Origin: Acidobacteriota bacterium | GTDB taxonomy: Bacteria; Actinomycetota; Acidimicrobiia; Spongiisociales; UBA5794 | Reading direction: 5' to 3' | NCBI GenBank assembly: GCA_022562055.1 | Contig: JADFQA010000009.1 | Location: 17,255-81,254 of the forward strand | DNA: 64,000 bases | In this document: one piece after another, positions 35,956-50,652 of the stretch | Layout of the letters: each line of letters starts with the position of its first letter | Position numbering within the stretch: the stretch's first letter is position 1 | Notes under the pieces: model-generated | Told to the model about the DNA's origin: nothing | The model's input: only the letters and a program-made list of their open reading frames with translations | Databases searched by the model: none | Made by a program: the position numbers and the translations under genes

Positions 35956-35973
35956 TTGTGAAAAATATCACAA
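35956..35973. promoter_or_regulatory. Rex operator overlapping the rex start codon
   Basis: TTGTGAAAAATATCACAA has 1 mismatch to TTGTGAA-N4-TTCACAA and contains the GTG start. Confidence 0.75.
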
Positions 35974-36593
35974 TCCCGTCCGCAACGATTTCACGTCTCC
36001 CGGTGTACCTGAGGTCGTTGGGTGACATCGCAACCGCGCAGACCACGATCAGCTCGATCCAGCTTGCGGAGATAGCGGGTGTTAACGCGGCTCAGGTGCG
36101 CAAAGACCTCTCGAATCTAGGAGCTACTGGTGTTCGAGGCGTCGGGTACAGCGTCGCGGATCTACGCCTGGACCTTCGCGAGGCTCTCGGCCTCACCCAC
36201 GGCTACCACGTGGCGATCGTCGGCGCAGGCAACCTTGGAGCTGCCCTTGCCAACTACGGCGGTTTCGCCTCCTGGGGATTCGAGGTCGGCGCGGTATTCG
36301 ACACCGACCCGCACAAAATCGGCGAGACCATCGGCGACCTCACAATCGACGACCTTGTCCATCTGGGAACCATTGTGAAGCAGCGTGGCATTGAGATTGG
36401 CATCGTCGCGACACCCGCTAGTGGAGCGCAAGATGTTGTGAATCGTTTCGTGGACGCGGGTATCCGCTCCATACTCAACTTCGCGCCCGCGGTAGTGCAC
36501 GTCCCCGCCGACGTCGCGTTGCGCAGAGTCGATCTCTCAACCGAGCTCCAGATCCTCACCTACCACCTACATCATCGCAAGGCCGCCGGGTAG
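35958..36593 (+). CDS. rex: Redox-sensing transcriptional repressor Rex
   Basis: IPSATISRLPVYLR, QVRKDLS..G..G.RG.GY, IVGAGNLG and ILNFAP. Confidence 0.97.
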   Translation: MKNITIPSATISRLPVYLRSLGDIATAQTTISSIQLAEIAGVNAAQVRKDLSNLGATGVRGVGYSVADLRLDLREALGLTHGYHVAIVGAGNLGAALANYGGFASWGFEVGAVFDTDPHKIGETIGDLTIDDLVHLGTIVKQRGIEIGIVATPASGAQDVVNRFVDAGIRSILNFAPAVVHVPADVALRRVDLSTELQILTYHLHHRKAAG

Positions 36594-36711: not shown

Positions 36712-37212
36712 CTACAGGTCGGACTCTTTTTCGTACTTGTCTAGTGCAACGATGAACATGACGAACAGGATCAGCGATGCAACGGTGAGTCCGATGGCGG
36801 GGATACGAACCTCAATGGCGTTGAGACCCTGGACGCTTGAGGGTCGAATGCCTCGCGGTGCGTAAACGACGAAAAGCGTAGACCCGATGGTCAACCAGCC
36901 AAACAATGCTGCGCCAGACACGAGAAGGGCCAGGCGTTTCCCAAGATTGGTGTAGATCAGCGCAACGCCGCTGCCGATGAAGGCGAGCAGTGCCGATCCG
37001 GCGATCAACAATCCGCGGGCGGCGACAGAGAATCTGGTGAGCTCCCCGGTTTCGTCGATCTGTTTGAAAATGTTGGTGTATGCGTCTCCGAGAACGCCCC
37101 GTGCCGCCGGGATGAAGGCAGTGAACGCGACGACAATCGCAAAGACTCCGAGTTTTTCCAGACCTGATAGTCCGGACTCGTCACGATGGATGCGATGGAG
37201 TAGCGTTTTCAC
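36712..37212 (-). CDS. Membrane protein, last gene of the cytochrome bc operon, with a Flp-prepilin-like N-terminus
   Basis: GTG at 37212 overlaps the stop of the cytochrome c gene. RDESG|LSGLE followed by a hydrophobic helix and three further TM segments. Confidence 0.75.
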   Translation of the reverse strand: MKTLLHRIHRDESGLSGLEKLGVFAIVVAFTAFIPAARGVLGDAYTNIFKQIDETGELTRFSVAARGLLIAGSALLAFIGSGVALIYTNLGKRLALLVSGAALFGWLTIGSTLFVVYAPRGIRPSSVQGLNAIEVRIPAIGLTVASLILFVMFIVALDKYEKESDL

Positions 37213-38807
37213 ATCGAGTCCTCGTAGATGGCGATGAGTTCGATGTCTCGTTGGCTGAGCATCTTTCCGAAGGCTGGCATACGCCCGGTGCCAATTCCGT
37301 TGATCCCGTAGGACTGGCCGAATGTGGTGCCTTTGATGATGAGTTTCAGATGATCTTCGAACCGAACAAACTGCGAATCGGCTCTGCCATCGAGCAACGA
37401 CGGACCCCACGCTCCCGACCCCGCGGGTTGTTCGTATGCAACACCTGCGGAGTATCCACCGGTGTGGCAACGGGCGCAGTATGCGTTGTACAGGCCGACA
37501 GCCCGGGTTGCCTCGTCCAATGAAAGCCCGGTGTTCGCGCTGACCTCGCTGAAGTCCGTGAACCACTTTCGATCCTTGGCAGACTGGACGAGGAAGCCCA
37601 TGGACGTGTTGGCAGTCAGCAGGAACGCTTCATTGCGTTCGGTCATGACCTGAAGGTTGAGGTGGCGTGCGCCGACCAAGGTGAGAAACTCGTCTACCTC
37701 GTCAAGGTCGCTCTCGAGCATCCCCGAGGCGTCAGCCATCGAGAATGGGTTGTCGGTTTCGAGGGCGAGCAAGAGGGCTTCGGTCTCGACAAACGAGACG
37801 ACAAACTCTCCATCGACCTTCTTGACGAGTCGTGTTTGCATCTGCTCGAACGCCAATTCGGACATGTCGTTCAGCGTGGTCTCGGCTGCATCGGTAATGC
37901 CGTCGCGATCCGTGTCGACTCCAGACGTCCCACATACTCGGTCGACGAGAGCTGCGGATTTACTCGTGCACGTTCCGTCACCACCGAGCAGGGCGCTGAG
38001 CTGCTCCGGGAAGGTTTCGATCGGCTTAAACCGCGACGGAGCGTCGGCGATGTCGTCGATAACCGCTTGCTGGATGAGGATCAATTCGGCGACCTTTTCG
38101 TCACCCGTCTCGAGGCGCTTGATAGCGGAGTCAACTGCAGGCTCGATCTTGCGCAACACGTCGCCCTGGGTAACACCAAAGTCCTCAATGTAGGCCATGA
38201 CTTGAAGAACCTCTTGAAACGTCATGGCGCCACCGCCGGGTATGCCGTTCGCAGGCATCGGTGTTCCCTGGCGCCCGTGGTTGATGATCCCCGAGATTTC
38301 TTCCTCGTCGAAAAGGAAAAAGAGGTCGTTTAGCGAGGGGGCGCTCCACGAGGTGCTGAGTCCCGATCGGACCTCGACGAAGCTTGCCCCGCCGCCGACA
38401 CCATCCGCTCCGTGACAATCGATGCAGGAGAACTGGTTGAACCATCTCTCTCCCTCATCGATGTCTTTTTCGTGGATTGCTTCCGCAGCGCCGATCTGGC
38501 GGTCGGCTTCGTTGAGGTAGTAGATGGGTACGACCAGAGCTAACACGGCCGCGGCGACCATTGCCGAGCGCAACACAGTGTTGAGCTGGACGTTCTCGAG
38601 ATCGCCGTCAGACAGATATGGCTGGAGGTTCTTTGCGGGCTCTTCGCCGCCTGACTGGGGCCGGGCGGCAATCCACAGCCACGCAATCCACATCACGAAC
38701 ACCGCGGTGGCGACGATCAGAACTATCGAACCAATGCCGACGTTTGGTGGTCCCGTGCCGGTTGGACGCGCTTCGACGAAGAAATACAACGTTTGTAAGT
38801 CAATCAA
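37209..38807 (-). CDS. Membrane-anchored di-heme c-type cytochrome (QcrC-like) with a large inter-heme insertion
   Basis: CIDCH...GTPMP and CARCH...GRMP (His/Met ligation), two N-terminal TM helices. Confidence 0.9.
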   Translation of the reverse strand: MIDLQTLYFFVEARPTGTGPPNVGIGSIVLIVATAVFVMWIAWLWIAARPQSGGEEPAKNLQPYLSDGDLENVQLNTVLRSAMVAAAVLALVVPIYYLNEADRQIGAAEAIHEKDIDEGERWFNQFSCIDCHGADGVGGGASFVEVRSGLSTSWSAPSLNDLFFLFDEEEISGIINHGRQGTPMPANGIPGGGAMTFQEVLQVMAYIEDFGVTQGDVLRKIEPAVDSAIKRLETGDEKVAELILIQQAVIDDIADAPSRFKPIETFPEQLSALLGGDGTCTSKSAALVDRVCGTSGVDTDRDGITDAAETTLNDMSELAFEQMQTRLVKKVDGEFVVSFVETEALLLALETDNPFSMADASGMLESDLDEVDEFLTLVGARHLNLQVMTERNEAFLLTANTSMGFLVQSAKDRKWFTDFSEVSANTGLSLDEATRAVGLYNAYCARCHTGGYSAGVAYEQPAGSGAWGPSLLDGRADSQFVRFEDHLKLIIKGTTFGQSYGINGIGTGRMPAFGKMLSQRDIELIAIYEDSM

Positions 38808-39670
38808 TTGCAGGCCGGTCCTTGCGGGTAGGCGACGCTCTTGACTTTGGCACGCGAAGTCTCGAACACTGTGCCAGTATGGATGATGAGGTTGTTTTCC
38901 TCGTCGACCGTGACCATGAACCGGTCCATGTTGCGAGGCGCCGGACCTTCAATGTATTCGCCGTGCAAGTTGTACTTCGACCCGTGACATGGGCACTCGA
39001 ATCCCTGCGACGGCAGACACTCAGGTACTCGGCACCCTAGGTGAGGACACCGGTGCCAGATCGCCATGATGCCCGGTTCGGCACCGGCACCAACGATCAC
39101 GCTGTCCGCGATGTCGGCGAGAATCGACGCGGATACATCTCCACGGAATGGCACAATCCACGCTTGCGCGGCAGGGATAGGCTTCGGCTTGATCGTGCCA
39201 TCGGCCTGAATGACCTCCGTCCGGAGATCGTCGATGTTGCCGGCTGAGATCGGTGAGCCAAATCCGCCTTTGACTTTTGGCCAAAGAAACGCAAGGTACG
39301 CAAGGCCCTGTGTAGCGAGAAATGTGCCGAAGAAACCGAGGATGGCGCGGTTGAAAAACATCCGCCGGGTCGCACCGTAGTCCTCTTCGGATACCACCTC
39401 GCGCTCCGTAAGCGGATCGGCGATCGGCCCTGCATCCTCAACAGCTTCGGGGACGAGGACCTCGATCGAATCAGACTCAGCGCTAGGCGCGGAGAGCTTT
39501 CGCGCCTCGGCCTTACGAGCCCTGCGGTCCGCTTTTGCAGCGCGCCTGTCGAACGATCCTGTTATCGGTCCTGCGTCGGGGCCGCGTCCGACAGCGATGC
39601 TCGCAACAGCAGCGACAACGAGGACAGTTACGAGTCCAATACCGATAATGAAGGCGGTTTGAGCGTCCAT
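38804..39670 (-). CDS. Rieske 2Fe-2S subunit of a menaquinol:cytochrome c reductase (QcrA/PetC-like)
   Basis: CPHLGC and CPCHGSKY; TRRMFFNR Tat-like anchor. Confidence 0.95.
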   Translation of the reverse strand: MDAQTAFIIGIGLVTVLVVAAVASIAVGRGPDAGPITGSFDRRAAKADRRARKAEARKLSAPSAESDSIEVLVPEAVEDAGPIADPLTEREVVSEEDYGATRRMFFNRAILGFFGTFLATQGLAYLAFLWPKVKGGFGSPISAGNIDDLRTEVIQADGTIKPKPIPAAQAWIVPFRGDVSASILADIADSVIVGAGAEPGIMAIWHRCPHLGCRVPECLPSQGFECPCHGSKYNLHGEYIEGPAPRNMDRFMVTVDEENNLIIHTGTVFETSRAKVKSVAYPQGPACN

Positions 39671-40506
39671 CAGAAATCGAAGAATATCCCGTCTACCCAG
39701 GGGAATGTGAAGTTAAACCCTGGGCCTCGGAAAAACGAGCCGTACGTCGTGAGCACCGCGGCTCCCATGAAGAAGAATGAAAAGATCATGATTGCTAGCT
39801 TGCGGTCAGACGGCCGAACTGATGGATTGCGGTCAATGTAGGGAATGAATGCCAGCGCGGCCAAACCGTATCCAGGCAGGATAATGCCGGCAACCATTGG
39901 ATCGAAGTAAGACAGCAATTCCTGCAAGCCGAGGAAGTACCACGGCGCCTTGGACGGGTTCGGTTGCTGGTTGAAGTTCGCAAACTCGAGCAGCGGCGCA
40001 TCGACGTAGATCGAGAAAACGAACAGTCCTGCGGTGACGACCAGCAGTGCTACAAACTCGATGGCGACCAGGTGCGGCCAAGTGTTCACTTTGTCCGTTG
40101 GCTCCCGCTTTGTCTGCTGGATTGCGCCAGCCCGGACGACTGTCAGAAGCCGTTGTGTGCGGACACCTTCTGGAATGGTCGGCATGGGTGCAGGAGTGCC
40201 GGCAGCGACCGGCGCCGACGCGGTCTGCGCTGCTTGGGGGGCGCCGCTCGTCGTTGCCGCCACTGGGACGCCGGAGATTTTCGCTCTTGCCGTCATTGAG
40301 CGTTGGAGGAGATCCTCAGGGACACCGAGTTCCGCTGATTCTGTGGAGATATCGCGTGCCGCGCCCACGGCTTCCGCCGTACTAGCGGAGGACGATGGGG
40401 GCGCCTCGCCTTTCATTTCAGCGAGAATCTCATCGACCGGACGGCCTGTTGCTTTGGCTTTTGCCTCGGCCGAGCGACGAAGAAGGTGTTCTGGAAGTCC
40501 TGCCAT
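39670..40506 (-). CDS. Cytochrome b6 subunit IV / PetD-like, with a repeated N-terminal extension
   Basis: ATG at 40506. WPHL..IEF, NPSKAPWYFLGLQELL and PYIDRNP..RP..R; three TM helices. Confidence 0.9.
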   Translation of the reverse strand: MAGLPEHLLRRSAEAKAKATGRPVDEILAEMKGEAPPSSSASTAEAVGAARDISTESAELGVPEDLLQRSMTARAKISGVPVAATTSGAPQAAQTASAPVAAGTPAPMPTIPEGVRTQRLLTVVRAGAIQQTKREPTDKVNTWPHLVAIEFVALLVVTAGLFVFSIYVDAPLLEFANFNQQPNPSKAPWYFLGLQELLSYFDPMVAGIILPGYGLAALAFIPYIDRNPSVRPSDRKLAIMIFSFFFMGAAVLTTYGSFFRGPGFNFTFPWVDGIFFDF

Positions 40507-40514
40507 CGTATTCC

Positions 40515-41288
40515 CTAGAGCGGCCCTGAGATGCCGCCGTCCTTGCGGACTCGCCAGAAGTGCACGGACATGAAGATGACGATGATAAATGGTAAGAACA
40601 GGACATGCAGTACATACCACCGCAGCAGTGTGTCTGGTGTGATTTGTGTGCCACCGATCAGCGCAAAGCTCACTTGCTCGCCGATGACGGGAGCATAGCT
40701 GCCCATGTTTGAACCGACGGTCACCGCCCACACTGCAAGCTGATCCCACGGCAGCAAGTAGCCCGTGAAGGAGAGCAGCAGTGTAAGAAGCAACAGCACG
40801 ATACCGACAACCCAGTTGAACTCGCGTGGTGGTTTGTAGGCGCCGTGATAAAACACACGGGCCATGTGGAGGAACACGGTCAGCACCATTGCATGCGCGC
40901 CCCACCGGTGCATATTCCTCACAACCTGACCAAACGTAACGTCGGTCGCCAACGCCTGGATGTCGAGATACGCCTGCGGCGACGTTGGTCGGTAATAGAA
41001 CATCAAGAAGATGCCCGTAATGGTGAGCAGGATAAAGAGGAAGAAACTCAGCCCGCCAAGACACAACGTATACGACAATCGGACGCCGTGGCGCTTCACC
41101 TTCACCGGATGCAGGTGATACAAAACGTTGTTCATGATCACGTATGACCGGTTGCGAGGGGTGTCGGCGTAACCATCGCGGAACGGCGAGCCGGGACGAA
41201 AAATACTCGACCACGCTGCAGAAGACCTGACGTGTTGTCCGGTCTCGGCAAGTTTCGACATCAACCCGTTTTTGCTTTTGTCGCTCAC
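40515..41288 (-). CDS. Cytochrome b6-type N-terminal cytochrome b (PetB-like)
   Basis: CLGG (heme ci site), [26 protein letters not shown], and LHV...HFW with 14 residues between the His ligands. Confidence 0.95.
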
Positions 41289-41366
41289 CTACGCTCCTCG
41301 TCTACATTCTTGGTGCGGTGCCGTGGGCTGCCGCCGAGTGCCTTGCGCACTCGCGCACTCGCGTAC

Positions 41367-41810
41367 TTACCAACGGATGCCATACATGTACCCGTTCTTG
41401 AAATCGCGCTGCCCAGTGTCGTGCTCCCACGGCGTTGCTTCAAATCCGTCGGTTTTGTCGGCTACGGAACCGCTGAATTTTCCGAGGCTGATAACCCCCG
41501 TGGGGCAGCGATCGATGCACAGAGCGCACCGTGTGCAGACATCTTCGTCGACGATAAAGAATCCGCCGTTTTCCTTGTTCTCGTCCGGATGATCCACGTT
41601 GACACCTTCTGAAATGGCGTCAAGCGAAAGGAAGTGGATGCACTTCCACGGGCAAATGTCAACGCATCCCTCGCAGATAATGCATTCCGACTCGTCGATG
41701 TGGAGAAACGTTTTCGGTTTGACGGCCGCCACCAGGTATGCGCCGTCGACCAACGCGAGCTGGTAGTCGTCTCGGATCGGTGGGAGGTCTTGCCACACGT
41801 CATTCGCCAC
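41367..41810 (-). CDS. 2x[4Fe-4S] ferredoxin
   Basis: CIICEGCVDICP and CTRCALCIDRCP. Confidence 0.95.
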   Translation of the reverse strand: MANDVWQDLPPIRDDYQLALVDGAYLVAAVKPKTFLHIDESECIICEGCVDICPWKCIHFLSLDAISEGVNVDHPDENKENGGFFIVDEDVCTRCALCIDRCPTGVISLGKFSGSVADKTDGFEATPWEHDTGQRDFKNGYMYGIRW

Positions 41811-41813
41811 GGG

Positions 41814-42422
41814 CTACCGCTCCTGCTTGACAGTTGGCCTGCCGAACGCCGAAATCGGCGTTACGGGGTCTGATTCGATGCGGTTCTTTTCGTAGGTTTG
41901 CCACTTCACCATGGCGACTGGGATGCCGATCAGAAGGTTTCCCGTCATGCCGGCTACGAGGATCTCTTTGAGGACCTCGTACGAGATCGAAATATCGTTG
42001 TTGAGTGCCAGCACGCGTGGAATCGTGAACAAGGTTCTTTGCGATGACCAATCGAGATCGGTTTGGGCAATGGTCAATAGTTGGTTCGGGATTACGCCAA
42101 AGAGCAGCATCACCATGGATGTGAATACGAATGCCCCGATGGCTGCTCGCGCCCAAGTCAACTGTCGGCGGTACAAGAATGCCAGTGTTATTCCCCCAAG
42201 CAGCATGAATATCCCGGTTAGGGAGATGGTTTGTGCCAGTGTGCGAATGGGCAAACCGCGCGGGATCGAGGGGTACAGCTCGCGACCGACGGAGTCCGTT
42301 GCAGGGAGGCCTACGAAATGCGCAAGCACCGCACCGCCGATAGCAGTGAAAACCCCAAGGACCGCGACAGCGATACCGATTCGGTAGAACGTGCGCAGTT
42401 GCTTTTCGTCCAGGGCCTTCAC
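41814..42422 (-). CDS. Hypothetical membrane protein, first gene of the bc operon
   Basis: Three to four hydrophobic helices, 3 nt upstream of the ferredoxin gene. Confidence 0.75.
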   Translation of the reverse strand: MKALDEKQLRTFYRIGIAVAVLGVFTAIGGAVLAHFVGLPATDSVGRELYPSIPRGLPIRTLAQTISLTGIFMLLGGITLAFLYRRQLTWARAAIGAFVFTSMVMLLFGVIPNQLLTIAQTDLDWSSQRTLFTIPRVLALNNDISISYEVLKEILVAGMTGNLLIGIPVAMVKWQTYEKNRIESDPVTPISAFGRPTVKQER

Positions 42423-42650
42423 CTCGTTGTCCGTCTCGTGCGAGACGCCTCATCCTGTCAGTACCGTCTAGGTCGGTACGCGCATTCTACGCATGTGAAG
42501 TCGTCTGTGAAATCCATGCCCTTTTGACCATCGTCTCGAAGGATATGACAATGCACTGGGTGCGAGGTCTACTCAGAGGTCACGCGACTCAGATGCCGCA
42601 CTCGCAAAGACTAGGCTGGCGTGGCGAAGACCTACCCAGGTTGAGTATGT

Positions 42651-42710
42651 GCTTTGGCCGAGCATTGAAAGCGATACGAGGCTTTGGCCGAGCATTGAAA
42701 GCGATACGAG
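42651..42710 (+). repeat. Perfect 30-bp tandem duplication
   Basis: GCTTTGGCCGAGCATTGAAAGCGATACGAG occurs twice with no spacer. Confidence 0.95.
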
Positions 42711-42722
42711 GAAACGAAAACG

Positions 42723-44687
42723 GTGACCGCCGATACCAGTCTTACCGATGACGCTTCTGCGTCCTCATCAGACGTACCCGACGCTTTCATAGATCACGCC
42801 AACGTGCGCGTGTTTGCAAAGCTTGCGGTGCTGTTTCTCGTCGTCTCCACAGTTCTCGGTTCCATCGCGGCTGTTTCTCTCGTGAATCCCACCGTTGCCG
42901 ATATCTCTAGGTTTCTCTCGTATGGCCGGTTGTACCCGGTGGCGACAAACTTGTTCATTAACGGTTGGTTGACTCTCGGGTTCCTCGCGGTCGTTATGTA
43001 TCTCGTGCCCAGACTGCTCAACAGATCTCTTGCAGCCGCTGGTTCCGCGGTAGTCGGCGCCGGACTGTATGCCGCTGGTGTCATCGCTGCGGCTGGGTTC
43101 GTCACGGTGCAAGGCGTTGACGGGAACGTCGGTTTTGAGGCGCCCTGGTATATCGACTTTGTCACCTTGATCGGCGTAATCCTGATTTCACGAGCCGTCG
43201 CGTTAACCGTCCGCAAGCGTCCGAAATCGGGCGACGGTGGCGCTGCACCTATTCCGCCGGTGGTGCTGTTTCTTACGGCAGGGGTCATTTGGTTGACCCT
43301 TGCGTTGGCAGTCGCACTGCCGTTTGGTGGTGGTCCGACGACTGGTCTTGGTGGGGTTCTCCAGAACATATTTGCCCGGGGCGCCATCGTGGGCCTGTGG
43401 TTAACGTCGGCGGGTTTTGGTGCCGTCTACTACATATCTCACCGCATCACCGGCGCCCCGAGCCGTGCCACTGACCGAAGCGTCTTGGCTGCCTTCTGGT
43501 CTGTCGCTGTCGTCATGCCGTTTTACGGGGCGACGCAATTGGCACACTCGGTCATGCCTGACTGGTTGGAGACGGTGGGGGCCATGTTTGCAATTGGTGC
43601 GCTATTGCCCGCGCTCATTCTAGCGAACGACCTCGCCAGGACAGTGCGATCGCGCATCGACAACGTGACCGATGCTGTCACGCTGAAGTGGCTTTCTTTC
43701 GGCACCGCTAGCTTCGTTGCTTTCATTGCACTCACGGTTCTCGGAACAATTCGTTCGGTTGCGGCAGTCGCGCAGTTGACGACGTGGACGTCGGGTATCG
43801 AGTTCCTCGCACTCGGCGGTGCCTTCACCGCTTGGTTGGTCGCCTTTTACCGGCACGCCGGTGTTGAGTTTTCGGGTAGACATGTCGACCGTGCAACTTC
43901 TGAGTGGCATCTCCGCCTTACCGTGCTCGGCGTGGTTGGTTTCGTTCTGGCTTCCATGTCCGCCGGCGTCGTTTCGGGATATGCCTGGATCGGCGCAGCG
44001 AATTCGCCCAACGTCGGAGTGACCGGCGTTGACTTTGCGCTGGCTTCGCAGCCGACGTTATTTGCGCTGGCCACCCGTGGCGCCTCCCTGGGCGTTTTCG
44101 CGTTAGGCGCTATCGTGTTCGCAGCGTCGCTGCTGGGTTCTGCGTCGCCGACCACTGACACGCCCGAGGTCGACTCCCTCGATGACGGTCGCTCCGTGCT
44201 CTCCGGCTCTCCGGTGGGATTCCCCAAGCTTGTCGGCGCCAGTGTCGGTCTGTTCATCGTGGCGATGTCGGTGGTGTGGCTCATTCCGTCGACCGAAGTG
44301 AACCCGACCGAAGGGACCATCCTTGGCGACACCACCAGAATGGAATCAGACGATGTGTTTGCGGCGGGTAAGGCCATCTATCTGCAAGAAGGATGTGTCT
44401 ACTGTCACACGCAGCAGGTCCGTCCAATTGTTACCGACGTCGATCTTGGCGCGGTGAGCGCGTACGGCGATTACGTGAACGAAGATGTTGTGCCCCTCGG
44501 TGTCGCCCGCCTCGGTCCCGATTTGATGCACGCCGGCACTGGCGAGGACACCGGGTCCGTTGTTTTCCTGCGTAGTTTTCTTGAAGATCCTCGGGCGGAG
44601 CGTTCTTGGTCCACAATGCCGAGCTATGCGCACCTCTCAGACGCTGAGATCGAAGCGCTTGCGATTTATCTGACCGGGCTTAAGTGA
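42723..44687 (+). CDS. Degenerate cbb3-type subunit I (CcoN-like, no heme/CuB His) fused to a CcoO-like cytochrome c
   Basis: CcoN-collinear segments SYGRLYPVATN, EAPWYID, YGATQLAHS.MPDWL and TTWTSGIEF. C-terminal GKAIYLQEGCVYCHTQQVRP, RLGPDL and STMPSY. Confidence 0.85.
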   Translation: MTADTSLTDDASASSSDVPDAFIDHANVRVFAKLAVLFLVVSTVLGSIAAVSLVNPTVADISRFLSYGRLYPVATNLFINGWLTLGFLAVVMYLVPRLLNRSLAAAGSAVVGAGLYAAGVIAAAGFVTVQGVDGNVGFEAPWYIDFVTLIGVILISRAVALTVRKRPKSGDGGAAPIPPVVLFLTAGVIWLTLALAVALPFGGGPTTGLGGVLQNIFARGAIVGLWLTSAGFGAVYYISHRITGAPSRATDRSVLAAFWSVAVVMPFYGATQLAHSVMPDWLETVGAMFAIGALLPALILANDLARTVRSRIDNVTDAVTLKWLSFGTASFVAFIALTVLGTIRSVAAVAQLTTWTSGIEFLALGGAFTAWLVAFYRHAGVEFSGRHVDRATSEWHLRLTVLGVVGFVLASMSAGVVSGYAWIGAANSPNVGVTGVDFALASQPTLFALATRGASLGVFALGAIVFAASLLGSASPTTDTPEVDSLDDGRSVLSGSPVGFPKLVGASVGLFIVAMSVVWLIPSTEVNPTEGTILGDTTRMESDDVFAAGKAIYLQEGCVYCHTQQVRPIVTDVDLGAVSAYGDYVNEDVVPLGVARLGPDLMHAGTGEDTGSVVFLRSFLEDPRAERSWSTMPSYAHLSDAEIEALAIYLTGLK

Positions 44688-44694
44688 GTTAAGA

Positions 44695-45540
44695 ATGGAC
44701 CAATCGCTCAACAAGATTTCGGACGAGTACGGCTACCCCGCTGACCTGGTTTCAAGAGCCGCCGCCGCGCGAGCCCAGGTGGAGGGAATCAGCCGCGAAG
44801 CCGTCGCCGCCCGCTGGGCGGGGGAAGAAGTGCCCGAAGGGGGAGCGGCACCTGCGGCCGCACCCGCAGCCGTCGCAACCACACAGGACGATGCCGCAAC
44901 TCCGGCCGGTCTTGATGTCGAAGTGCTCGAAGCCGTTGGGCACGATGAACCTGACCTGCCCGACTCGCCGTCTGTAGTAGATGAGCCAAGTCCGGTAGGC
45001 GGGTTCGTGAGATGGCTCGCCATTGTTGCGTTCATCATTCCTGTCATTGCTCTCACGTACGCCTTTGTCGCGCCCGATGGTCCGGCCTGCGGAGCAGCCG
45101 GTCAACTCGACGTCGATCCTGCGACTGGGAACGCGGTCGGGTGCGACGGCAAGGCCTACGGTGCCGGTGCCGTCAATTTCTTTGCGCTCGGCCAGGACGT
45201 GTACACCGCACAGTGCGTTGCGTGTCACGCTGCCGACGGCAGCGGCGGGGTTGGACCTGCATTCTTCGGTGGGTCAATCGTCGAGACGTTCCCGGCGAAT
45301 ATTTGTGCGGACCATCTTGAGTGGATCACGCTCGGGTCCTCTGGGTGGCAGAACGAGCGTGGTAATACGTACGGTGCCTCCGCCAAACCAGTGCTCGGAT
45401 TTTCCGGTGTGCCGATGCCAGGCTTTAGTAAGCTGACAGCCGACGAGCTTTCCGCGGTAGCTATATATCAACGTGTCGCATTTGGTGGCGAGGAAATCGC
45501 TATCGCAGAAGCTTCCTGCCTCGTCTCCGCAGCCAGTTAG
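44695..45540 (+). CDS. Membrane-anchored monoheme cytochrome c with a cytoplasmic N-terminal extension
   Basis: One TM helix, CVACH and GVPMPGF; four further Cys outside the heme motif. Confidence 0.9.
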   Translation: MDQSLNKISDEYGYPADLVSRAAAARAQVEGISREAVAARWAGEEVPEGGAAPAAAPAAVATTQDDAATPAGLDVEVLEAVGHDEPDLPDSPSVVDEPSPVGGFVRWLAIVAFIIPVIALTYAFVAPDGPACGAAGQLDVDPATGNAVGCDGKAYGAGAVNFFALGQDVYTAQCVACHAADGSGGVGPAFFGGSIVETFPANICADHLEWITLGSSGWQNERGNTYGASAKPVLGFSGVPMPGFSKLTADELSAVAIYQRVAFGGEEIAIAEASCLVSAAS

Positions 45541-49170: not shown

Positions 49171-49590
49171 GTGACTCTTGTTGCGTATTTACCAATCGGC
49201 CTCATGATGCTGCTGGGAATCGGCTTTGCCACGACCGCGATGTGGGTGTCGTGGAAGATTGCACCCAACAATCCCTCCCCCGAAAAGCTCGCTCCGTACG
49301 AGTGCGGCATCGTTCCCCTCCAAGAACCCGCCGAGCGTTTCCCCATTAAGTTCTACCTCGTTGCCATGTTGTTCGTGATCTTTGACGTCGAACTTGTGTT
49401 TCTGTTCGCATGGGCCGTGCGCTTCGAATCATTCGGGTGGACAGGCATCGCCGCGATGGCAGTGTTCGTCGCGCTGCTCGCAGAGACGCTCGTCTATGTG
49501 TGGAAGCGTGGCGCTCTCGACTGGAACGTGGCTCACCGGGCCCGATACCGCAGAGTCGTTGCTGAGTACGCCGACGAAGAGGCGGCGTAG
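49171..49590 (+). CDS. nuoA: NADH-quinone oxidoreductase subunit A
   Basis: [19 protein letters not shown] and KRGALDW. Confidence 0.97.
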
Positions 49591-50060
49591 TGGCCGGTGA
49601 GACGACCCCACCGGGATTCTTGCTCACCACTCTCGACAAGGGTGTCAACTGGGCGCGAACCCGCTCGATGTGGCCGGCGTCTTTTGGTCTCGCGTGTTGC
49701 GCCATCGAGATGATGGCGACCGGCGCATCTCACAACGACATTGCGCGTTTCGGCATGGAAGTGTTCCGCGCTTCTCCGCGTCAGGCTGACCTGATGATCG
49801 TTGCCGGGCGCGTTTCGCAGAAAATGGCCCCGGTACTGCGCCAGGTGTATGACCAAATGGCCGATCCGAAATGGGTGATCTCGATGGGTGCGTGCGCATC
49901 CACCGGGGGAATGTTCAACAACTACGCGCTGGTGCAAGGCGTCGACCAGATCGTTCCGGTCGACATGTACGTCCCGGGTTGCCCGCCAGGTCCGCAGTCG
50001 TTGCTGCACGGTATTTTGAGCCTGCAAGAAGAAATCATGGCTGGCACCATCCGCCGGTAA
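49590..50060 (+). CDS. nuoB: NADH-quinone oxidoreductase subunit B
   Basis: [21 protein letters not shown] and PGCPP. Confidence 0.97.
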
Positions 50061-50079
50061 TCGAGGAGTAGCAGAACCA

Positions 50080-50652
50080 GTGTCTGAGGAGAGCAAAACA
50101 AAGCCTAAGAGCGCGACGGCTCAGAGTGTGACGCACGGAGGTGACGCTGGCGCGGCGCGCGTCATGCCCGCAGACGCCGTCTTGGCCGCCCTCGCCGAGG
50201 AGTTTGCGAGCGCCGAATTCGAGGTGTTTGAAGCTGCCGGCGCATCGTGGGACATCGTTACGGTGTCGGTAGACGACTATCACGGGTTTGTCGCTGCGGC
50301 CCATGCCAGCGGGTACACCATGTTTGTTGACCTGTGCGCCGTTGATTATCTGAGAAGAGACCCCCGTTTCGAAGTCGTGGTGCACATTGAGTCGCCCAGT
50401 CCCTACACGAGGTTGCGTATCAAGGTCGGGGTTACGATGCCCGACGTTCTCGTTTCGTCGATCTCCGACATCTACGCGGGTGCCAACTTTTTTGAACGCG
50501 AGGCGTTCGACCTCATGGGTGTCAACTTCTCGGGTCACCCCGACCTGACGCGTCTGCTGCTTCCTGACGACTGGGAAGGTCATCCGCTGCGCAAGGACGC
50601 AGCGACAGGCACGGTGCCCGTCCAGTTCAAGGCGTCGTACAAAGCCACATGA
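50080..50652 (+). CDS. nuoC: NADH-quinone oxidoreductase subunit C
   Basis: EREAFDLMG..F.GHPDL.R and GHPLRKD. Confidence 0.96.
   Translation: MSEESKTKPKSATAQSVTHGGDAGAARVMPADAVLAALAEEFASAEFEVFEAAGASWDIVTVSVDDYHGFVAAAHASGYTMFVDLCAVDYLRRDPRFEVVVHIESPSPYTRLRIKVGVTMPDVLVSSISDIYAGANFFEREAFDLMGVNFSGHPDLTRLLLPDDWEGHPLRKDAATGTVPVQFKASYKAT

Follow-up and report, generated by a model that had tools for sequence, protein, structure and literature searches.

Two divergent respiratory operons share a short motif that forms the core of a mobile mini-domain specific to their lineage. This module is a previously undescribed helical domain of respiratory membrane proteins of uncultured marine Acidimicrobiia, and on our best reading it is probably a cytoplasmic docking piece through which respiratory complexes are tied together or to a single partner. 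The window in which it lies, the whole 64,000-nucleotide stretch of DNA that was analysed, has the following genes around the module copies.

36712..37566, minus strand: reading frame containing the last small membrane protein of the b6c operon (match to the C-terminus of relative P0207, E = 1.7e-20)
37209..38807, minus strand: dihaem cytochrome c (PF13442, PF00034)
38804..39670, minus strand: Rieske iron-sulfur protein (PF00355)
39670..40506, minus strand: subunit IV (PetD/QcrC-type) of a b6c-type menaquinol:cytochrome c reductase, 278 aa (PF00032)
40515..41288, minus strand: cytochrome b6 (PF00033, E = 1.5e-47)
41367..41810, minus strand: 2x[4Fe-4S] ferredoxin that heads the b6c operon (Fer4 families)
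42723..44687, plus strand: CcoN-like 12-TM protein fused to a CcoO-like monohaem cytochrome c (PF00115, PF02433)
44695..45540, plus strand: membrane-anchored monohaem cytochrome c, 281 aa (PF00034, E = 1.6e-06; PF13442, E = 2.6e-06)

Subunit IV is encoded directly after the PF00033 cytochrome b6 gene and matches PF00032 (Cytochrom_B_C) over residues 176-257 (E = 3.7e-07; 30.7 bits, above the curated cut-off of 20.7), with transmembrane (TM) segments at residues 143-161, 203-221 and 235-253. The product of the 36712..37566 reading frame probably has its true start downstream of the dihaem cytochrome c stop at 37209, and the last small b6c-operon protein lacks the module in this genome. On the opposite strand, the cytochrome c gene lies directly 3' of the fusion gene, and its product has one TM segment at about residues 99-125 and a CVACH motif at residues 174-178 (nucleotides 45214-45228). 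Assignment of this protein as CcoP was rejected (TIGR00782, 12.6 bits against a cut-off of 179.95; one CxxCH, not dihaem), and it is CcoP-like by gene position only. The fusion product scores 65.9 bits against a cut-off of 583 for CcoN (TIGR00780), and in an alignment with CcoN of 9g6b_A it has Ala, Arg, Thr-Gln, Ile/Phe or a gap in place of the histidine ligands of haem b, haem b3 and CuB. Because all of the haem and copper histidines are lost, the unit opposite the b6c operon is not a working cbb3 oxidase.

A first-pass annotation of this DNA had placed the motif twice in subunit IV and once in the cytochrome c, and its coordinates and letters are exact for all three copies. It had taken the repeating unit to be about 22 residues long; relatives and AlphaFold models enlarge this to a module of 34-46 residues with two or three helices. 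The motif cores, modules and linkers are as follows.

40500-40444, minus strand: subunit IV motif core 1, GLPEHLLRRSAEAKAKATG
40326-40270, minus strand: subunit IV motif core 2, GVPEDLLQRSMTARAKISG
44731-44787, plus strand: cytochrome c motif core, GYPADLVSRAAAARAQVEG
40405..40506, minus strand: module copy 1, type A, subunit IV residues 1-34, MAGLPEHLLRRSAEAKAKATGRPVDEILAEMKGE (AlphaFold)
40357..40404, minus strand: linker 1, subunit IV residues 35-50, Ala/Ser/Pro-rich, predicted disordered
40270..40356, minus strand: module copy 2, variant A', subunit IV residues 51-79, RDISTESAELGVPEDLLQRSMTARAKISG
40177..40269, minus strand: linker 2, subunit IV residues 80-110, Ala/Pro/Thr-rich
44695..44826, plus strand: module copy 3, type B, cytochrome c residues 1-44, MDQSLNKISDEYGYPADLVSRAAAARAQVEGISREAVAARWAGE, predicted three-helix mini-domain (AlphaFold)
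44827..45003, plus strand: cytochrome c linker between module and TM anchor, residues 45-103, Ala/Pro/Asp/Glu-rich (by composition)

Copy 1 begins at the initiator methionine of subunit IV and is modelled by AlphaFold as a helix-turn-helix hairpin (helices at residues 6-20 and 24-31; pLDDT 71-83 per 10-residue block). In copy 2 a leading helix precedes the main one (residues 53-60 and 64-78 in the AlphaFold model), and the last helix is lacking; this conserved variant is the last, membrane-proximal copy in relatives, with the consensus RDL-x-AES-x3-GVP-x2-LL-x-RAM-x-ARA. In the same models pLDDT is below 50 at residues 37-48 of linker 1 and 88-103 of linker 2, the latter running into a conserved IPEGVRTQRLL helix that precedes TM1. 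The earlier description of Ala/Pro linkers after all copies holds for subunit IV, but that of the cytochrome c is also rich in Asp and Glu.

All three copies precede the first TM helix and had been predicted to be cytoplasmic, in agreement with the known topology of their carriers. The N-terminus of subunit IV is on the n-side, and in a c-type cytochrome with a single anchor the haem domain is necessarily outside the cell; the module is therefore cytoplasmic.

We assessed whether the resemblance between the copies exceeds chance. A looser pattern derived from relatives, P-x2-[LIVM]2-x-R-[SAT]-[AM]-x-A-[RK]-A-x3-G, matched only the three copies when scanned over the 4.78 million six-frame residues of the genome, and had no match in 20 residue shuffles. 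An HMM built from the three copies found nothing further in the 2.9 Mb genome (next E = 0.16). When copies were left out in turn, the cytochrome c copy retrieved subunit IV as its best non-self match in the genome (E = 0.026), and the two subunit IV copies retrieved the cytochrome c at E = 1.2, rank 6. Because these within-genome results are only marginal, the three copies alone do not prove kinship. Sequence comparison with relatives establishes it: subunit IV bears two to five copies in 121/121 sequences (the query and the 120 best of 7991 relatives), the cytochrome c bears one to three in 80 of 85, and P5, R11, A17 and G21 are conserved at 96-100% (n = 420 copies). The family search by HMM that had been proposed at the outset returned a conserved family, small and closed, with 436 representatives among 1.84 billion proteins. 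The first-pass annotation had not recognised it as a named domain, and the module matched nothing in Pfam, NCBIfam or the PDB, the best profile hits to PDB sequences were short fragments (E = 0.076 at best), Foldseek of the module model against the PDB reached E = 4.3 at best, and in the literature we found no paper describing it.

In type A (34 residues) a Gly turn is predicted to join a basic helix to a short acidic one, and type B (about 46 residues) has a further helix in front; behind each copy runs a disordered Ala/Pro(/Glu) linker, 15-90 residues long. The motif had been described as helical, and the AlphaFold prediction for type B, made with 48 aligned copies, is confidently so (pLDDT 89.9, pTM 0.67; helices at residues 2-12, 16-30 and 34-41). 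In both types helix 1 carries about +1.4 and helix 2 about -2.1, with a lower helix 1 charge in the few CcoO-like and polytopic copies. Because this pattern is identical, types A and B have no electrostatic complementarity.

In its size and its P-x-(helix)-A-x3-G-x-S/T-(helix) pattern the module resembles ribbon-helix-helix (RHH) proteins (FitA-like PF22513, CopG, Arc). PF22513 is matched by 4 of 48 copies (best E = 0.0011), and hhalign against local RHH proteins sets 26 columns in register. It is nevertheless very improbable that the module is a degenerate RHH with a role in dimerisation or nucleic acid binding. With hhalign the probability reaches only 18.6%, every Pfam match is far under the 27-bit cut-off, and a genome scan with PF22513 recovers the true RHH genes but not the modules. 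The module also has no beta strand, the site of the DNA-reading strand being predicted by AlphaFold as helix (residues 2-12, type B) or coil (residues 1-5, type A); its last helix is about half as long as that of RHH proteins, and turns of the G-x-S/T kind cap helices in general.

Five carrier families were found, every one of them respiratory or adjoining respiratory genes, with one to seven copies per protein; carriers 2, 4 and 5 bear the module in lineages other than this one.

Carrier 1: b6c complex subunit IV, type A
Carrier 2: last small membrane protein of the b6c operon, type A
Carrier 3: anchored cytochrome c, type B
Carrier 4: CcoO-like cytochrome, type B
Carrier 5: polytopic protein beside the caa3 oxidase operon, type B

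Among the best 150 of the 436 representatives, the classifiable matches fall into four of the five families and the others are fragments or frameshifted gene calls; the polytopic protein was detected by whole-genome scans. It has one type B copy in 116 of 120 relatives. In two streamlined genomes COX2-COX1-COX3-CtaG is immediately followed by its gene, and in four other genomes a distance of 2-3 kb separates the gene from that operon. Relative P0207 has seven type A copies ahead of the last b6c-operon protein domain. Free CcoO-like proteins bearing the module include P0284 and L006; the CcoN/CcoO fusion in the window abolishes the free CcoO N-terminus, which is module-bearing in relatives with separate genes. 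Type A has Met or Leu at position 31 and type B has Trp31-Ala-Gly together with the extra helix. Trp31 occurs in 162/179 cytochrome c, 13/13 CcoO-like and 4/4 polytopic copies, and in none of the 326 subunit IV or 10 small-TM copies. The subtype thus tracks the carrier, A on the b6c proteins and B on the rest.

This distribution bears on the possibility that the b6c complex has in the module an intrinsic regulatory arm, folding back on the n-side near the quinone-reduction site, with the other copies a secondary spread of little function. Subunit IV keeps two short N-terminal helices across the class (IPEHLL-x-R and IPAHLLERS); they are present in 12/12 genomes sampled from other orders, and these genomes have neither the last helix nor type B copies. 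The N-terminus of chloroplast PetD is a short, unrepeated tail that acts with the STT7 kinase, and we know of no sequence similarity between it and the module. In favour of a regulatory arm, the b6f subunit IV stromal tail is reported to be a functional, regulatory interaction surface at an n-side N-terminus (PMC13287000). Here, by comparison, the domain is folded, repeated and transferable. Three other carrier families show strong conservation of type B, and streamlined genomes of 1.0-1.1 Mb retain the module (1-7 matches per genome, mostly 3-6), both of which speak against a regulatory arm and make it a distinctly unlikely explanation.

The N-terminal placement could also reflect a biogenesis or topology device, a fast-folding plug and spacer that keeps the N-terminus cytoplasmic and aids insertion. 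All modules are N-terminal to the first TM helix, which emerges only after 100-470 residues; the first copy lies within the first 15-20 residues in two-copy and one-copy proteins; and few positive charges flank the cytochrome c anchor, whose linker is acidic. However, one copy would suffice for such a device, up to seven occur and their number changes fast. What the carriers have in common is a pathway and not a topology class, and most membrane proteins of the genome do without the module. We therefore consider this role improbable.

The first-pass annotation had proposed a docking or oligomerisation module that joins the two halves into a supercomplex, and the data support this in part. The arrangement of the two operons is conserved: the divergent synteny is maintained down to 45% identity, and both subunit IV and the cytochrome c carry the module in 53 of the 54 species loci that cover both genes. 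Docking is favoured by the confinement of the module to respiratory proteins, its presence in both divergent operons, the division of subtypes by complex and the confident fold. Retention of the module in the streamlined genomes also favours it, as does copy number, which has changed at least eight times on the 54-species tree and fits a tunable valency. The module would act as a protein-protein docking 'sticker' on flexible 'spacers', and stickers would bind one another, either across the two types or within a type. The b6c complex and the haem-c-bearing CcoN-like unit would thereby be kept near each other in the membrane, and the caa3 oxidase would also be drawn in where the polytopic carrier exists. 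That mutual association of stickers holds these three together is a putative arrangement that we propose tentatively, rating it at somewhat below even.

Several observations weigh against it. AlphaFold models the subunit IV N-terminus as independent beads on a string of disordered linkers, and its two copies do not pack against each other (pTM 0.30); the like charge of types A and B offers them no electrostatic match; and linkers of up to 90 residues exceed what lateral contacts between neighbouring complexes need. On the raw counts, copy number in subunit IV is negatively associated with that in the cytochrome c (Fisher p = 2e-05), but the association vanishes under phylogenetic control. Mechanical gene conversion can account for identical modules on the adjacent CcoO-like and cytochrome c genes; the module of the distant polytopic gene takes no part in it.

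The long linkers would suit fishing in the cytoplasm, and the module might instead recruit a common soluble partner, such as the operon ferredoxin or a dehydrogenase, and concentrate it at the complexes. The model for this is the peripheral subunit-binding domain (PSBD; E3_binding, PF02817) of 2-oxoacid dehydrogenase E2, which captures E1/E3. By analogy alone the module has the PSBD architecture, a helical mini-domain of about 35 residues between Ala/Pro linkers, variable in number, and it may likewise serve for docking in a multi-enzyme assembly. The ferredoxin is a candidate partner: its gene heads the b6c operon and is present in 70 of 80 species loci (the missing ten being mostly short contigs), and it is acidic (pI 4.4) whereas helix 1 is basic. 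However, the module as a whole is neutral to acidic, two conserved subtypes that track the carrier are unexpected with a single partner, and no partner gene was found. Sequence kinship with PF02817 is lacking, neither the three copies (at E up to 10) nor 48 copies (at E up to 1) giving a match. The PSBD, moreover, sits unrepeated within a soluble E2 core, whereas the module occupies membrane respiratory N-termini in one to seven copies of two subtypes. We consider a soluble partner unlikely.

Returning to docking between complexes, a stronger form of the proposal, putative and rather unlikely, is that the type A modules of the b6c complex cross-bind, over flexible cytoplasmic tethers, with the type B modules of the CcoN-like/cytochrome c unit and of the caa3-linked protein, and multivalently cluster one respiratory patch. 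Such a patch would unite complex III with the true terminal oxidase and with a dead oxidase scaffold that serves as a haem-c relay. If so, respiratory supercomplexes would be built from the cytoplasmic side, which to our knowledge has been described for no organism.

In the bc1-cbb3 supercomplex the flexible linker extends from the outer (p) face of the membrane and bears the haem domain there, and the contacts are transmembrane. Contacts in the obligate CIII2CIV2 supercomplex of Mycobacterium and Corynebacterium are transmembrane and periplasmic, and we know of no repeated cytoplasmic module in it. The bc1-cbb3 supercomplexes with tethered cytochrome cy of Rhodobacter capsulatus (PMC7876108) and Pseudomonas aeruginosa (PMC10556555) resemble the proposed assembly in pairing a bc-type complex with a C-family oxidase-type unit, and in having a cytochrome c that is anchored in the membrane and carried by a long, flexible linker. 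Here, in contrast, both linkers and modules lie in the cytoplasm, and metal ligands are absent from the CcoN-like subunit. CIII2CIV2 (PMC8523172, PMC8795186) comes from the same phylum and joins complexes III and IV, as is proposed here, with lineage-specific accessory subunits. It is of the bcc-aa3 kind and its cytochrome b is fused, whereas the complex in the window is b6c-type with a split cytochrome b.

We examined a small helical domain (hereafter the module) in the region of the window where two divergent operons lie back to back. The first-pass annotation had proposed it as a motif of ~22 aa shared by subunit IV and cytochrome c, with a docking or oligomerisation role, and its coordinates for all three peptides are exact. 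The genes concerned are as follows.

Genes of the two divergent operons (window coordinates)
41810-41367, minus strand: 2x[4Fe-4S] ferredoxin, b6c operon
41288-40515, minus strand: cytochrome b6, b6c operon
40506-39670, minus strand: subunit IV, b6c operon (module copies 1 and 2)
39670-38804, minus strand: Rieske protein, b6c operon
38807-37209, minus strand: dihaem cytochrome c, b6c operon
within ORF 37566-36712, minus strand: small membrane protein, last of the b6c operon
42723-44687, plus strand: CcoN-like/CcoO-like fusion, opposite operon
44695-45540, plus strand: anchored monohaem cytochrome c, opposite operon (module copy 3)

A pattern derived from relatives, scanned over the six reading frames of the 2.93 Mb genome (4.78 million residues), matches these three sites alone and gives 0 matches on shuffled sequence, and an HMM built from the three copies finds no further copies in that genome. 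Leave-one-out comparison of the three copies within the genome is marginal (E 0.026 in one direction, 1.2 in the other), and the case for the module therefore rests on relatives. Subunit IV carries 2-5 copies in all 121 sequences scanned (the query and its 120 best relatives), and cytochrome c carries 1-3 copies in 80 of 85. The HMM family search suggested by the first-pass annotation used a profile built from 19 diverse copies; among 1.84 billion representative proteins, only 436 match it at E <=1e-03 and 97 at E <=1e-10. The proposed unit length did not hold: in the relatives' consensus the unit spans ~34 aa, or ~46 aa on cytochromes c.

The motif had not been recognised as a named domain, and database searches agree. 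Neither Pfam nor NCBIfam contains a family for the whole proteins, the isolated copies or a set of 48 copies; matches to the PDB, whether by module profile against PDB sequences or by Foldseek on the model, are at chance level only; and a full-text literature search found no published description. The ribbon-helix-helix family PF22513 is weakly matched by 4 of the 48 copies. We rejected membership of this family, with an hhalign probability of 18.6%, no beta strand in the module and a PF22513 scan that recovers true ribbon-helix-helix genes but none of the modules. The closest analogue is the peripheral-subunit-binding domain that lies between the Ala/Pro linkers of E2 chains, although the likeness is one of architecture alone and the two have no sequence relation. 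The observation is confirmed and extended: the module represents a genuine domain family, undescribed and lineage-restricted, which complex III proteins share with those of a degenerate C-type oxidase unit and with a protein of the caa3 neighbourhood. At a minimum, the databases gain a new domain family.

The consensus over 420 copies reads G-[VIL]-P-E-x-L-L-R-R-S-A-E-A-R-A-K-A-E-G-R-[PSD]-V-E-E-V-L-A-E-[WM]-x-G, after which the sequence is rich in Ala/Pro; P5, R11, A17 and G21 are conserved in 96-100% of the copies. The longer unit of the cytochromes c arises from an additional conserved leading helix, M-D-E-L-L-x-x-V-A-E-x-x-G. AlphaFold2, run on an alignment of 48 copies headed by the cytochrome c copy of the window, predicts a three-helix mini-domain (pLDDT 89.9, pTM 0.67; helices at aa 2-12, 16-30 and 34-41). 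The subunit IV N-terminus (aa 1-124) is modelled as separate pieces (pTM 0.30), with helices at aa 6-20, 24-31, 53-60, 64-78 and 113-121 and linkers of pLDDT <50, a prediction that resembles beads on a string. No packing between the subunit IV copies is seen within this modelled molecule; contacts between molecules are a separate matter. The second subunit IV copy in the window is a conserved membrane-proximal variant that lacks the last helix. Helix 1 is basic, ~+1.4 for the main carriers; helix 2 is acidic (~-2.1), and the whole module is neutral to acidic, a charge on which we rejected the idea that a basic module binds the acidic ferredoxin by overall charge. The N-terminus of subunit IV faces the n-side in b6f and bc complexes, and c-type cytochromes with a single anchor place the haem domain outside the cell. 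From this established topology, all module copies are predicted to be cytoplasmic.

The copies fall into two subtypes. Trp at position 31 is absent from b6c carriers (0/326 subunit IV copies and 0/10 copies on small TM proteins) and prevails elsewhere (162/179 cytochrome c, 13/13 CcoO-like and 4/4 polytopic copies). Type A, with RR at positions 10-11 and Met/Leu31-Lys, marks b6c proteins; type B, with Trp-Ala-Gly and the extra helix, marks the non-b6c carriers. Among the best 150 of the 436 profile matches, those that could be classified belong to four carrier families, and the others are frameshifted gene calls or fragments. A fifth family came from scans of whole genomes.

Carrier families of the module
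Subunit IV (profile search)
Anchored monohaem cytochrome c like that of the window (profile search)
CcoO/FixO-like monohaem subunits (profile search)
Protein P0207, 618 aa, with seven copies and then a 4-TM domain (profile search)
Polytopic membrane protein of ~380-400 aa (whole-genome scans)

The seven tandem modules of P0207 are of type A and represent the highest copy number seen, and its 4-TM domain is homologous to the last protein of the window's b6c operon (E 1.7e-20). In protein P0010, adjacent copies match exactly, as do their linkers, suggesting that they were duplicated in tandem recently. The polytopic carrier has no Pfam family, and a single module copy is present in 116 of 120 relatives. 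Its gene directly follows COX2-COX1-COX3-CtaG in two 1 Mb genomes, and in four larger ones 2-3 kb separate it from this operon. The protein may be an unrecognised oxidase-associated subunit. Loci in which it comes after or close to a caa3 operon (COX2-COX1-COX3-(COX4)-CtaG) include L004 4063-9893 and L007 4213-9687, both on the minus strand, as well as L123 and L124. The window's genome has no homologue of this carrier.

The CcoO-like carriers bear on the protein encoded opposite the b6c operon. Because the CcoN-like and CcoO-like parts are fused in the window, the module-bearing CcoO N-terminus of other genomes is missing here. Aligned to CcoN (9g6b_A), the CcoN-like half of the fusion (42723-44687) has no histidine ligands left for haem b, haem b3 or CuB; the fused CcoO-like half retains CxxCH. 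With these ligands absent, the unit is a haem-c-bearing scaffold rather than a functional cbb3 oxidase. The true oxidase is of the caa3 type, and the caa3 neighbour bears type B modules in other lineages. The module marks the ferredoxin, the b6c proteins, the CcoN-like protein without metal ligands and the cytochromes c, a conserved cluster, as one functional unit.

The divergent arrangement of the operons is conserved down to 45% identity, and modules occur on proteins of both (subunit IV and cytochrome c) in 53 of the 54 species loci that cover both genes. Of the possible readings, a putative role in cytoplasmic docking or tethering has the best support, and we hold it tentatively. The modules could instead recruit a common soluble partner; this ranks next, and we consider it unlikely. 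The tests of docking were indirect throughout, and no positive result came from them. In raw counts, copy number on subunit IV falls as that on cytochrome c rises (Spearman -0.44, Fisher p = 2e-05), but a tree-based test of valency compensation, with four independent pairs only, is not significant, and we do not count the raw anticorrelation as evidence. Nor did we find charge complementarity between types A and B.

In the lineage with 1 Mb genomes, the CcoO-like gene and the adjacent cytochrome c gene have modules with 99-100% DNA identity within each of 12 genomes, one of them over 228 nt at 100%; between genomes, most pairs of these modules reach 67-76% and the closest pair 91%. Homogenised 5' ends of the two genes are seen in locus L005 (5246-5473 and 6268-6495) and in L038-L042 and L126-L142. 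At the DNA level this pattern indicates gene conversion of module and linker that is still ongoing. We rejected the proposal that such concerted evolution reflects matched interfaces: the module of the distant polytopic gene is outside the homogenisation and evolves orthologously, so that local gene conversion is a sufficient explanation.

If the docking role holds, a repeated, transferable cytoplasmic docking domain on complex III and complex IV-type proteins would represent a different assembly principle. The bc1-cbb3 and bcc-aa3 supercomplexes are joined by transmembrane and outer-face contacts, and to our knowledge the same is true of known respiratory supercomplexes in general. Docking is directly testable with peptides of 34-46 residues.

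Of the genomes sampled from the window's order, 33 of 35 give strong module matches, as do nearly all those sampled from one family with 1.0-1.1 Mb genomes; in the rest of the class matches are weak. Judging from GC content, habitat and the size of the genomes, the two module-bearing lineages are probably order UBA5794 and, as its sister, Ca. Actinomarinales (PMC12008989). The protein subunit IV is encoded in 140 of the 151 genomes of the class. The subunit IV N-terminus of other orders retains only two short helices, M-x-E-[IV]-P-E-H-L-L-[KR]-R and [KR]-I-P-A-H-L-L-E-R-S, and the last helix is absent. Because these helices are kept, the two subunit IV copies are ancient, with the full fold, extra copies and spread to other proteins arising later. 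Within the short helices (I-P-E-H-L-L and I-P-A-H-L-L) the His is invariant across the class (loci L026-L037, from other Acidimicrobiia orders); in the window's order it is often replaced. The tree requires at least 8 changes of copy number, and retention of the module in streamlined genomes argues for function. The hosts of the cluster are abundant, uncultured marine Acidimicrobiia whose respiratory chain is known from annotation alone, and all 80 named relatives are uncultured MAGs.

Where the b6c operon ends in the relative L001, it is adjoined by a gene for a Rex-type redox-sensing repressor (1415-2059; Put_DNA-bind_N and CoA_binding), and the window ORF at the matching position (35958-36593, plus strand) looks like the same gene. 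Downstream of the cytochrome c operon, at a distance of a few kb, a nuo (complex I) operon begins in the window (49171-50096, plus strand, from ORF translations) and likewise in L001 (18982-20873, Pfam-annotated). Finally, this cluster of Acidimicrobiia type is found in public MAG records assigned to unrelated phyla, under the labels Kiloniellales (L071, L084, L102), Gammaproteobacteria (L100), Saprospiraceae (L113), Armatimonadetes (L116) and Acidobacteria (L083, L111), with 51-62% identity to the window's subunit IV; these are probably mis-binned or mislabelled contigs.
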